Shown piece after piece: positions 22,403 to 24,528 of a DNA stretch of 64,000 bases (the first letter of the stretch is position 1; every line of letters begins with the position of its first letter). Location: the NCBI GenBank assembly GCA_965202785.1, contig OZ241855.1, forward strand, positions 1,088,001 to 1,152,000, read 5' to 3'. Under the pieces are notes generated by a model. The model was not told where the DNA came from. It searched no databases and was given only the letters and a program-made list of their open reading frames with translations. The stretch comes from Thermodesulfobacteriota bacterium (GTDB lineage: Bacteria; Desulfobacterota_D; UBA1144; Nemesobacterales; Nemesobacteraceae). The position numbers and the translations under genes were made by a program.

Positions 22403-23554
22403 CTAGAACTCTCCCCTGAACGCCTTTGCGAAGCCGTCATGCTGCGACCTGGCAATCTTTTCCTGCTCGGCCTGCAGGTAAGCCCGGTCCTTTCTCTCTA
22501 TACGTATTATGTCGTCCCGGCCCTTGGATGCCATGAACTGTGTTCCGACCGTTTCCTTTGAGATTATTTCAAGTATTGGCGGGTAGTTTTTCGATCCGAT
22601 GAATATGGAGTGTATGCAGACGCCTATGCTCTTTGCGCGCACTCTCTGCGCTTCGACATTGGGATCGCCGGAAGTTGGAATCCCATCGGTTATAAAGAGT
22701 ATGTGCTTGTTCCTGAGCCCTCTGCCCCGGAACTCCTTAAGGGCTGCTCCCAGCGCTTCTTCGTAGTTGGTATTGCCGGAGCAGTCTGTGCTCTCCGCCA
22801 GCTTTTCTATCCACCTGTAGTCCCTGGTGAAAAAACGGGAGTTCTTCGTGTGTTTTCTTGAACGGTGGTTAAATTCCAGATAGCCGATTCTCATTCTCTT
22901 TTTTCTCGCGAGCTCTATTACTCCCTTTACTACGGATGAAGACCACTCGCTGTAAACTCCCATCATCGAAGTGCTTACATCCCTCAGGATGGCTATTTCT
23001 CCTCCGAGCGTCTCTTTTTCGCGAAGGTGAACCCGTGGCAGCTTGGGAGAGGTGTGCTGTGACCATATAAACGCCTCTACGGGGTCTATATCCTCGACCT
23101 CATCAAAGGTGGACATACGTTTCCATTTCCTGGGGGAACCTCCTGGGTGGGAGGTTTTCTTGGCCATGCTTTTCTGGAAATTGCCCTCAAGGACTCTCAT
23201 GATGCGTTTTATGTTCTCGGCAGTTTCCGTATTTCCCCTTCCAGGGATGACAGTATCGTCGTCTTCTCCGGCCTTGGTGGATTTGCTGCTCATGTATGCG
23301 CGCGCGGATTTGTCCTCTCTTTCCGTGTTTCCGCTGTCCTGGGGATTTCCGGTGGGGTCGCTCGGCACGTCCTGGCCTTCCGGAGGAGCCATTTCGTTCT
23401 GGTTGTCAAGGTTCTGCTTTAGATCCTTGAGCGCGTCGAAGAAGGTTTTCTGGGCCTCGGCAAGCGGATTCTCGGTTTCCTTGTCCGCTTCCTCGTCGGG
23501 GATTTCCCCCTTGGGTTCCTGAGAGAAATCCTGGTCGAATTCCGAATCAGGCAT
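22403..23554 (-). CDS. VWA-domain protein (ViaA-like) with acidic/Pro-rich N-terminal linker; probably the -1 frame continuation of the AAA gene
   Basis: MIDAS motifs DVSTSM, GNTNY, ITDG; frame is open from the A10 run. Confidence 0.85.
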   Translation of the reverse strand: MPDSEFDQDFSQEPKGEIPDEEADKETENPLAEAQKTFFDALKDLKQNLDNQNEMAPPEGQDVPSDPTGNPQDSGNTEREDKSARAYMSSKSTKAGEDDDTVIPGRGNTETAENIKRIMRVLEGNFQKSMAKKTSHPGGSPRKWKRMSTFDEVEDIDPVEAFIWSQHTSPKLPRVHLREKETLGGEIAILRDVSTSMMGVYSEWSSSVVKGVIELARKKRMRIGYLEFNHRSRKHTKNSRFFTRDYRWIEKLAESTDCSGNTNYEEALGAALKEFRGRGLRNKHILFITDGIPTSGDPNVEAQRVRAKSIGVCIHSIFIGSKNYPPILEIISKETVGTQFMASKGRDDIIRIERKDRAYLQAEQEKIARSQHDGFAKAFRGEF

Positions 23555-23571
23555 CTGATCCGGGTCCGGGG

Positions 23572-24528
23572 TCAGCTTGTCATCTGGCTTTTTTTTTTAT
23601 CCTGAACTATATTCCGAAGAATATTGTCCATCTGTTCGTAGACGTCGGGGGGAACTCTGAAAGCAGTCATGTATCTTAAGACGTCAAGGTCTTCTTTCGA
23701 GCATACATCCCTTTCGTTAAGAAGAGCGTGGGAGCGGATAAGCTTGAGCGCTTTTACAAAAAACGTCCTGTCTGTAATAAGCGAGTTGGTCTCGTTAAGC
23801 CCGAAGTCCTCGATCATTATGGTTGCGAAATTCGCAAGACCTTCCTGCACATCGGGTGGAATCAGGATTTTTTCAAGGGTTTTGTAGCTTTTGTCGAAAA
23901 GCTTTTTGCTTACCCTTTTCGGTATTTTTTCTTCAAACGGCTTCTCGGCGTAAAGCTCGATGACTTTCTTGGCTTCATCCCATTTTCTACCGTAGGAAAT
24001 TCCAAGGGCTTTCACCTGAAGAATGAACCGATCGAGGTTTGCCGGATCAAGGGGTTCGTTATAGTACTCATCCGCGGTGGGATTGCTTGTCGCTATGGCT
24101 GTCAGAAGGGGAATGGGCTCGCTGAAGAATTTTCTTTCGTTAAGTATTCGAAGAAGTATGTTGAGCGATTCCCCGGGCGCGCGCGATATGTCGTCTAAAA
24201 GGCAGATCTCAGACGTCAGTATGCCGCCCTTTATAATATCCTGCTTTATCCTTTCTCCGAGTTCGGTGTCTTCCTTGATTATGGTCAGGTCCCCGACAAG
24301 TTCCGAGAGCCTGGTGTCTCTGTGAAGCTGGTAGAAAAAGAAGTTAAGCTGGGCTGCCTTGGAAACGATTTCCGAAAGCATAGTCTTCGCCGTACCCGGA
24401 GGACCTTCAATGTAGATGTGTTCTCTTGAGATTATTCCGAGAAGAAGGGCGGTTTTTACCTCGTCGTGTCCGACGACATGCTTATCCATTTCTTCCCGAA
24501 GGGACGCAAAAGGGTTAGCGGGGTTCAT
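23572..24528 (-). CDS. MoxR/RavA-like AAA+ ATPase
   Basis: Walker A GPPGTAKT, Walker B LLDDI, LN.LL..LNER.F, ATSN, LDRF. Confidence 0.9.
   Translation of the reverse strand: MNPANPFASLREEMDKHVVGHDEVKTALLLGIISREHIYIEGPPGTAKTMLSEIVSKAAQLNFFFYQLHRDTRLSELVGDLTIIKEDTELGERIKQDIIKGGILTSEICLLDDISRAPGESLNILLRILNERKFFSEPIPLLTAIATSNPTADEYYNEPLDPANLDRFILQVKALGISYGRKWDEAKKVIELYAEKPFEEKIPKRVSKKLFDKSYKTLEKILIPPDVQEGLANFATIMIEDFGLNETNSLITDRTFFVKALKLIRSHALLNERDVCSKEDLDVLRYMTAFRVPPDVYEQMDNILRNIVQDKKKSQMTS
23589..23598 (-). other. A10 slippery run at the AAA/VWA frame junction
   Basis: GAT AAA AAA AAA AGC on the minus strand; the -1 frame reads into the VWA ORF without a stop. Confidence 0.8.

Follow-up and report, generated by a model that had tools for sequence, protein, structure and literature searches.

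Do two frames that meet at a run of ten adenines, one coding for a MoxR-class AAA+ ATPase and the other, displaced by -1, for a domain of the von Willebrand factor A (VWA) type, represent two genes, one broken gene or one gene that is read in two ways? This question is raised by a locus in a 64,000-nucleotide (nt) stretch of Thermodesulfobacteriota DNA (assembly GCA_965202785.1, contig OZ241855.1, positions 1,088,001 to 1,152,000), hereafter the window, for which an earlier note, made from the sequence alone, had proposed a programmed -1 frameshift on the adenine run (A10). Judged from sequence comparison, the locus is very probably a single gene from which programmed recoding would yield two products, an ATPase-only protein and a 708-residue fusion of ATPase, linker and VWA domain. 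The coordinates of its features are collected in Table 1.

On the minus strand, the junction reads ...CAG GAT AAA AAA AAA AGC CAG ATG ACA AGC TGA. With a TAA shutting the -1 frame just before the run, it is only within the tract that the VWA frame becomes open. The adenine run, the TGA of the 0 frame and the TAA of the -1 frame had been read exactly in the earlier note, and the junction peptide given there is the start of the 397-codon -1 frame. Its other structural claims hold as well: the short overlap of the two frames measures 25 nt, the ATPase-only product has 318 residues, and the predicted shifted product comes to 313 + 395 = 708. The linker of about 190 residues, which had been called acidic and proline-rich, is predicted to be disordered and holds 41 Asp or Glu and 18 Pro in 187 residues. 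For a fused homologue with 74% identity, structure modelling places the corresponding KKK where the lid helix ends. A run of nine or more adenines is by itself not improbable in 64 kb, since dinucleotide shuffles yield a mean of 2.3 matches. Across the whole 1.64-Mb genome, the A10 tract is the sole A/T run of at least ten (A7, 584; A8, 144; A9, 11; A10, 1).

Table 1. Features of the MoxR-VWA locus, in window coordinates and in the order in which they are transcribed.
Feature	Position	Strand	Remark
Terminator-like hairpin closing the upstream outer membrane protein (OMP) gene	24720-24733	-	precedes the promoter-like site
Promoter-like site TTGAAA-17-AATAAT with TG	24560-24588	-	32 nt upstream of the ATPase ATG; consensus match only
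Open reading frame (ORF) 1, 0 frame, 318-residue MoxR-class AAA+ ATPase	23572-24528	-	C-terminal SQMTS, then TGA, five codons past the tract
Walker A GPPGTAKT	24382-24405	-	motif
Walker B-like LLDDIS	24184-24201	-	motif
Sensor-1 ATSNP	24079-24093	-	motif
Arginine finger LDRF	24025-24036	-	motif
Sensor-2 TDRTF	23761-23775	-	motif
TAA shutting the -1 frame directly upstream	23597-23599	-	sequence
A10 slippery tract (putative)	23589-23598	-	0-frame residues K311-K313, where the last AAA-lid helix gives way to the disordered linker
-1-frame ORF, linker then VWA	22403-23596	-	397 codons; first residues KKKPDDKLTPDPDQMPDSEF
0-frame TGA, terminator of the ATPase-only product	23572-23574	-	ends 17 nt past the tract
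9-bp hairpin	23543-23564	-	starts 25 nt past the tract; non-conserved ATG in its loop
ATG likely taken as VWA start by gene callers	23552-23554	-	no Shine-Dalgarno (SD)-like motif; not conserved
Conserved SEFDQD motif in the linker	23528-23545	-	conservation
VWA domain	22532-22996	-	PF00092, 9.2e-9, residues 201-355 of the -1-frame protein (P0001)
MIDAS DxSxS, here DVSTS	22967-22981	-	motif
MIDAS Thr in GNTNY	22763-22777	-	motif
MIDAS Asp in ITDG	22682-22693	-	motif

The same junction recurs throughout the phylum, whose members are called Candidatus Dadabacteria or Thermodesulfobacteriota in their record names. Of 120 genomes, 117 contain the gene, with a single match in each and even in genomes of 0.8-1.0 Mb; the exception to the single-match rule is one genome (G023) with a second, partial overlapping match beside a degenerate copy. 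That copy (L077, G023:C6:496-2967) is 77% identical, carries three in-frame TGA codons in its ATPase part and was counted as degenerate; either decay of the copy or a problem region may account for this. Altogether 116 of the 117 loci were taken, one match cut at a contig end being left out (G072), and the contig of another locus (L115) ends before the junction, which leaves 115 junctions. All 115 carry a tract of A9-A12 at the same place, with A9 in 15 loci, A10 in 68, A11 in 31 and A12 in one. As for the -1 offset that the earlier note proposed to look for in orthologues, 94 of these junctions are in the -1 register; 17 are fused in frame with open frames of 701-800 residues, three are at +1 and one is degenerate. 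Two loci with an early in-frame stop in the ATPase part (L040, L086) were kept in these counts. The 0-frame stop ends 10-27 nt past the tract in 93 of the 94 loci at -1, the remaining value being an artefact of the upstream stop in L040, and the VWA frame of these relatives is open and 51-99% identical. Within the genus of the window, 35 of 36 genomes combine A10 with the -1 register at 87-100% protein identity, and the flanking synonymous sites vary. Short-read assemblies are among them, as judged by SPAdes and MEGAHIT contig names (L006, L013).

Beyond the phylum, a protein-database search for longer homologues returned 253 fused MoxR-VWA proteins, which adds to the 17 fused genes of the phylum in answering whether fully joined versions exist, as the earlier note had asked. 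Fused homologues of about 700 residues belong to the same phylum, those of 628-650 residues (53-60% identity) are named Tectomicrobia, Entotheonellaceae and Abyssobacteria, and their alignment places KK(K) exactly at the end of the lid helix. At the nucleotide level, a tract of A9-A12 was found in 24 of 24 orthologues from three other phyla, namely in 13 of 13 genes of the phylum that contains Entotheonella (from 12 genomes, 17 having been searched), in both genes from the phylum labelled Nitrospinota and in all nine from a third phylum (9 of 11 genomes matched). Most of these orthologues are fused. Independent -1 splits occur in the Entotheonella clade (TSY1/DD2-type genomes; G120 twice, G128; A10), in G147 (A10) and in G141 (A9), and one gene with A12 is split at +1 (G129, L206). 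The two loci of G120 (L208 and L209, G120:C1:5157-13408) are tandem copies of the split gene in an Entotheonella DD2-type genome, each with A10 and a TAG directly after the tract. Taking all junctions together, the tract measures A9-A12 in 139 of 139 genes from four phyla, with 98 at -1, 4 at +1, 36 fused and 1 degenerate, and on these counts its conservation is far above chance.

The tract appears in different codon registers in different lineages (GAT AAA AAA AAA AGC; CGA AAA AAA AAA GTT; CAA AAA AAA AAC; AAT AAA AAA AAA ATA), and the GC-rich genes that carry it otherwise prefer AAG. Outside the tract, AAA accounts for 37% of the Lys codons in the non-Dadabacteria genes (15 distinct genes, 4 of the 19 entries being duplicates), with a minimum of 2 of 28 in one GC-rich gene; the share is 55% in the phylum of the window and 25 of 55 in the window gene itself. 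Judging from these two features, the tract is kept at the nucleotide level and not at the protein level. As a negative control, a 46%-identical fused MoxR-VWA paralogue from three Entotheonellaceae genomes (L211, L212, L213) has the tract in 0 of 3 cases; one in-frame TAG was reported inside each of these three matches. To judge by its distribution, the tract goes back to the common ancestor of all the orthologues and is older than the phylum. On a FastTree phylogeny of 134 ATPase domains, calculated without bootstraps, the register switches between -1, fused and +1 at least 10 times, which is a rough minimum. The tree omitted two loci whose N-terminal part is cut or on another contig (L206, L229), the two loci with early stops named above and three duplicates (L210, L214, L215). 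Furthermore, in the 17 fused genes of the Dadabacteria, each alternative frame runs into a stop 3-28 codons from where the tract begins, and in the fused genes of other phyla the addition or removal of one A leads to a stop within 1-14 codons; any slip in these genes would yield an ATPase that ends at the domain boundary. Little weight is given to this pattern, because such stops are partly expected from GAT/GAA-rich acidic coding. When the flanks were compared across phyla (all-against-all ORFs, 1.5-kb flanks), no shared partner was seen, and the matches were mostly antisense ORFs of the gene itself.

By its profile matches and the modelled fold of a fused homologue, ORF1 is a MoxR-class AAA+ ATPase. 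It matches the Pfam families PF20030 bpMoxR (1.7e-20; partial, positions 7-166 of 205), PF07728 AAA_5 (2.1e-18), PF07726 AAA_3 (5.7e-11) and PF17868 AAA_lid_8, a RavA-type lid (3e-5), and its closest PDB sequences are 2r44 (9.1e-17) and RavA (3e-9). The same two structures were the best Foldseek matches (2r44, E 1.2e-19, template modelling score 0.71 on the target; RavA, 1.3e-14) of an AlphaFold model of the 74%-identical natural fusion, built from a 116-sequence alignment with a mean predicted local distance difference test value of 70.6; an earlier model from 14 sequences (58.5) was discarded. Walker A, the sensor-1 Asn, the arginine finger and the sensor-2 Arg are present and invariant in the 116 fused homologues. 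The MoxR-class part of the labels "RavA/MoxR-like" and "RavA/ViaA-like" used in the earlier note is thereby upheld, whereas neither of the other two names could be retained: ORF1 reaches 46.2 bits against a cut-off of 681 for the NCBIfam RavA model and has 318 residues against about 498 in RavA, and the VWA part matches no ViaA model. The VWA domain, for its part, carries a complete metal-ion-dependent adhesion site (MIDAS) motif, whose residues D520, S522, S524, T590 and D618 are invariant across the 116 fused homologues, and its PF00092 match is the only one in the genome. In connection with the bpMoxR ternary system (MoxR, VWA and beta-propeller; PF20030), no beta-propeller gene was seen among the immediate neighbours, the sole region inspected. 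A PADLOC scan for defence systems matched neither part of the window gene, and the fused homologue gave weak IetA P-loop matches only.

Several explanations would do without recoding. Of these, a homopolymer miscall, with a true A11 and a plain fused gene behind it, or a decaying pseudogene is improbable in the extreme. The assembly is a single contig, long homopolymers are error-prone, and one of the DNA runs, X1, which may come from the source sample, has a depth of about 3. The runs were examined as assembled contigs, in which minor tract-length variants are lost; those of X1 (0 differences) and of the independent run X10 (depth about 65) both span the tract without a gap and read A10, not the A11 that the earlier note had named as the alternative. 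In addition, the -1 register is common to 94 genomes from many studies, and a pseudogene would hardly keep a 397-codon VWA frame open at 51-99% identity with an invariant MIDAS. The tract is, on this evidence, no assembly error, because two DNA contig sets agree on A10 and the tract recurs at all 139 orthologous junctions. Scarcely more credible are two ordinary adjacent genes, in which the VWA frame would have its own start, through internal initiation or termination-reinitiation, and the A run would be kept as a KKK patch or a poly-lysine attenuator. Most records annotate a separate ATPase of 318-320 residues, the window has an ATG 11 codons past the tract, and the 116 aligned proteins all have K313 and keep K314/K315 to 90% or more. 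However, this ATG, for which the earlier note saw no clear SD sequence and which indeed has nothing SD-like in the preceding 13 nt, is ACG (L011), GAG (L020), GAA (L021) or ATA (L023) in close relatives. Among the 94 loci at -1, the first ATG lies 11-12 codons past the tract in 29, 19-131 codons past it in 64 and upstream of it in one; an SD-like motif precedes it in 14, and the SEFDQD-type motif stands upstream of most of these first ATGs, including the 64 distant ones. Moreover, tblastn homology in the -1 frame begins at the tract even at 51-63% identity, so that protein-level conservation of this frame extends all the way to the tract, and the fused orthologues are colinear with it. The choice of AAA over AAG and the flanking CGA and CAA codons lengthen the homopolymer, which a need at the protein level leaves unexplained. 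As far as start codons and homology reveal, the VWA frame is not a separate gene and has no independent start.

Phase variation at the DNA level, in which replication would alter the tract length and leave cells genetically ON (fused) or OFF (split), is slightly less remote and still improbable. That DNA polymerases slip on poly-A has been described (PMC3711429), the family tree shows at least 10 changes of register, and near-identical genes of the Entotheonella clade differ in tract length. As an operating principle, however, it is disfavoured by the uniformity within Dadabacteria clades: a mixture would be expected, whereas 35 of 36 genomes of the genus, from many independent samples, are A10 and -1, and whole families are A11 and -1. 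The contigs of the two DNA runs show a single length, although contigs mask minorities, and a near-universal single-copy core gene is neither a surface nor a contingency gene. The most substantial rival retains the two products and assigns them to the ribosome alone, by a programmed -1 frameshift or by sliding on A_AAA_AAA while the mRNA stays faithfully A10; this is a real possibility, though the less likely one. Ribosome sliding on lysine-coding poly-A is known, the -1 register dominates in the phylum, the independent splits elsewhere with a clear register are all at -1 except G129, an in-phase A_AAA_AAA is available in each register, and the RNA contig X15 has A10. The chlD signals, too, have been described as ribosomal slippery sites (PMC9227772). 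Against a ribosomal site alone, no tract shorter than nine occurs in 139 genes, though seven adenines would do; the tract is 9-12 long with the next nucleotide unconstrained; and a -1 shift cannot rescue genes in the +1 register. No conserved structure lies 5-9 nt downstream: over the 60 nt past the tract, the median z of 115 loci is -0.54 and 20 of them fall below -2 (mononucleotide shuffles), and the 122-nt context of the window gives z = -1.22. The 9-bp hairpin of the window is confined to the closer species of the genus, being broken in L020 and beyond. As a -1 stimulator it was rejected as genus-specific and, at 25 nt from the tract, too distant for classical frameshifting, and it is not claimed as part of the signal. 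Likewise, no upstream SD-like stimulatory element is conserved in the sequences flanking the tract, and Rfam gave no match at E <= 1 in window positions 22000-25000.

Classical -1 frameshifting is thus disfavoured by the lack of a conserved stimulatory element, of which transcriptional slippage has no need. Slippage by the RNA polymerase, or sliding, is favoured because tracts are at least nine long, +1 registers exist and no downstream structure is conserved; the length range of 9-12, the unconstrained following base and the occurrence of all three registers were counted for the RNA polymerase. The frame is, on balance, rather more likely to be changed mainly by RNA polymerase adding one A, so that A10 in the DNA becomes A11 in the mRNA, and ribosomal slipping or sliding on A_AAA_AAA comes some way behind; both may contribute. 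The genome encodes tRNA-Lys(UUU) as well as tRNA-Lys(CUU), which offers no argument for either mechanism.

Several observations pull in the other direction, either from programmed recoding as such or from the RNA polymerase as its agent. The RNA-library contig X15, from the same sample as DNA run X10, has A10 like the DNA, so that what it represents, whether most of the transcript or DNA carried over, is unshifted; the expression data consist of contigs, which drop minor variants, and show neither two products nor mixed mRNA lengths. The in-phase A_AAA_AAA heptamer in every register makes a ribosomal slip possible, and the fixed tract length within clades, with 35 of 36 at A10 in the genus, fits the tuning of a ratio and equally a ribosomal -1 signal. 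Miscalled homopolymers in draft metagenome-assembled genomes could account for the +1 registers (3 of 115 junctions in the phylum, and G129). In the Entotheonella clade, near-identical genes have A10 (G120 twice, G128), A12 (G129) and, as implied by a 98%-identical fused protein (P0202), A11, and either DNA-level change or sequencing noise does exist there. The ATPase itself may depart from its class in one motif. A canonical Walker B reads hhhhDE; here the motif is LLDD, with Asp where the catalytic Glu is expected, in 116 of 116 fused homologues. Because it reads DD and not DE, the ATPase chemistry may be atypical, and hydrolysis perhaps slow or regulated. As a separate observation, RNA contig X16, which belongs to a relative with about 91% identity, has two extra T at window position 23588 on the plus strand, that is A12 on the coding strand, against A10 in all 35 genomic loci of the genus; either slippage or a strain in the +1 register could explain it.

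Among known systems, the closest parallel is the frameshifted chlD gene of Mg/Co chelatase. As the earlier note stated, poly-A slippage in this gene gives both subunits (PMC3711429, PMC9227772). Antonov et al. (2013) found a poly-A -1 shift in 23 chelatase genes, noted fused orthologues and measured, for the chlD cluster, shifting of 10, 40 and 63% for 7, 9 and 11 A's, the efficiency thus increasing with the length of the tract (PMC3711429). Kuznetsov et al. (2022) describe small and medium chelatase subunits from one gene (PMC9227772), and frameshifted chlD is also listed in a review (PMC5009743). The present gene resembles frameshifted chlD in uniting an AAA+ module, an acidic, Pro-rich linker and an integrin-I-like VWA domain, in the poly-A at the boundary of AAA module and linker, in the -1 offset and in having fused orthologues elsewhere; the small AAA and medium AAA-VWA subunits of the chelatase correspond to the two products proposed here. 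Unlike chlD, it belongs to the MoxR class, with 2r44 and RavA as its closest structures, its tract is never shorter than nine, and it has no conserved downstream structure, whereas chlD signals have been described with such structures. An identity as chlD or another chelatase was considered and rejected. Neither part has an NCBIfam BchD/ChlD or cobaltochelatase match at E <= 0.01, the Pfam profile PF01078 Mg_chelatase reaches 20.2 bits over 39 residues, under its cut-off of 20.3, and no BchI/ChlI chains are among the PDB sequence matches. The CobN/ChlH large subunit (PF02514) has 0 matches in this 96%-complete single-contig genome, a control search being positive in 5 of 14 reference genomes; without that subunit, the gene does not belong to a chelatase.

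A second precedent is dnaX, in which transcriptional slippage on A9-A10 yields tau and gamma in Thermus thermophilus and other bacteria (PMC3711429). There, too, a homopolymer of A9-A10 lies at a domain boundary within an AAA+ gene, and one oligomeric machine is supplied with full-length and truncated protein in a fixed proportion. Ordinary decoding of dnaX gives the long form and slippage truncates it, which fits the fused members of the present family, whereas the window gene needs slippage to extend its product; protein family and function are unrelated. By domain content, the functional kin to which the gene belongs are the MoxR/VWA chaperones. Like CbbQ-CbbO, NorQ-NorD and RavA-ViaA, it pairs a MoxR-class ATPase, which is hexameric in those systems, with a VWA/MIDAS adaptor. 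In the two-gene pairs, one VWA protein is found per hexamer (Q6O1), a finger enters the ring pore and a long linker is essential (PMC4660213, PMC13036017); a stoichiometry of CbbQ6:CbbO1 has been measured and is described as likely to be a "general theme" (PMC4660213), and a single NorD finger occupies the NorQ pore (PMC13036017). Unlike these separate and separately translated genes, the adaptor would here be tethered to an ATPase subunit and its dosage set by recoding, and the VWA part matches no ViaA, NorD or CbbO model. In architecture only, Rea1/Midasin is similar, in that one polypeptide unites the AAA+ ring with a long acidic stretch as linker and with a MIDAS/VWA domain, the MIDAS domain docking back onto the ring (PMC13036017, PMC4660213). 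It differs in having six AAA modules in a single eukaryotic chain and no recoding. Full-text searches found no literature linking MoxR or Dadabacteria to slippage or frameshifting, the supplementary list of 146 candidate clusters in PMC3711429 being outside their scope.

From these parallels, the following mode of action can be proposed. Standard decoding of the A10 template would give the 318-residue ATPase, with its stop five codons past the tract. In a fraction of expression events, a -1 shift at the tract would carry synthesis through the acidic disordered linker into the MIDAS-bearing VWA domain, giving 708 residues, provided that slippage occurs at a useful rate. In lineages at -1 or +1, the ATPase-only form would thus be the default and the fusion the slippage product; in the in-frame lineages, the fusion would be the default and the ATPase-only form would arise by slippage. 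The purpose would be to keep ATPase subunits in excess, so that a hexameric ring, if the two products co-assemble, would hold few tethered VWA adaptors, ideally one. Because of the CbbQ6:CbbO1 ratio and the single NorD finger in the NorQ pore, we infer that, through recoding, the ATPase ring receives VWA-tethered subunits as a minority; the "set ratio" of the earlier note would have the same footing. More speculative, and on present evidence rather doubtful, is an extension to an ancient, family-wide stoichiometry device, in which slippage by RNA polymerase would set free ATPase to fusion at about 5:1, place the finger of one tethered MIDAS adaptor in the pore and be retuned by the gain or loss of one A.

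In its genomic setting, the MoxR-VWA gene looks monocistronic, because the promoter-like site follows the terminator-like hairpin of the upstream OMP gene (Table 1). Its neighbours are this OMP beta-barrel gene, a SulP/STAS transporter gene and the convergent YceG/MltG and ProB genes. The OMP gene (24774-25604, minus strand) lies upstream on the same strand, and the transporter (26607-28868, minus strand) has 753 residues with a long C-terminal extension; for neither was a link to the MoxR-VWA gene established. Four of the eleven A9/T9 runs of the genome lie inside long ORFs. When these other A9 tracts were checked for dnaX, they were located instead in a UvrD-like helicase (L218), a class II ribonucleotide reductase (L219), a SulP protein (L220) and MTHFR (L221). 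If RNA polymerase slips on A9 in this organism, these four genes would also give some truncated products.

For annotation, these results mean that in most of these genomes the VWA half is called as a separate ORF without a start, or with an arbitrary internal ATG, whereas the real product is most likely the 708-residue fusion. At stake is the annotation of a core gene that is nearly universal in a candidate phylum (117 of 120 genomes), and of its relatives in Entotheonella-type and other uncultivated lineages. With respect to recoding, chlD would no longer stand alone: this would be a second AAA+/VWA family whose two subunit types both come from a homopolymer at the domain boundary. Furthermore, the occurrence of the same tract in all three registers, with at least 10 switches between them, constitutes an unusually clean natural experiment able to separate transcriptional from ribosomal mechanisms, and the matching of one VWA adaptor to a six-fold MoxR ring becomes testable through tract length. 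Should the stoichiometry device prove true, the chlD trick would have been invented a second time, and independently, among AAA+/VWA proteins, and a single gene would answer the Q6:O1 asymmetry for which two-gene MoxR systems rely on binding.

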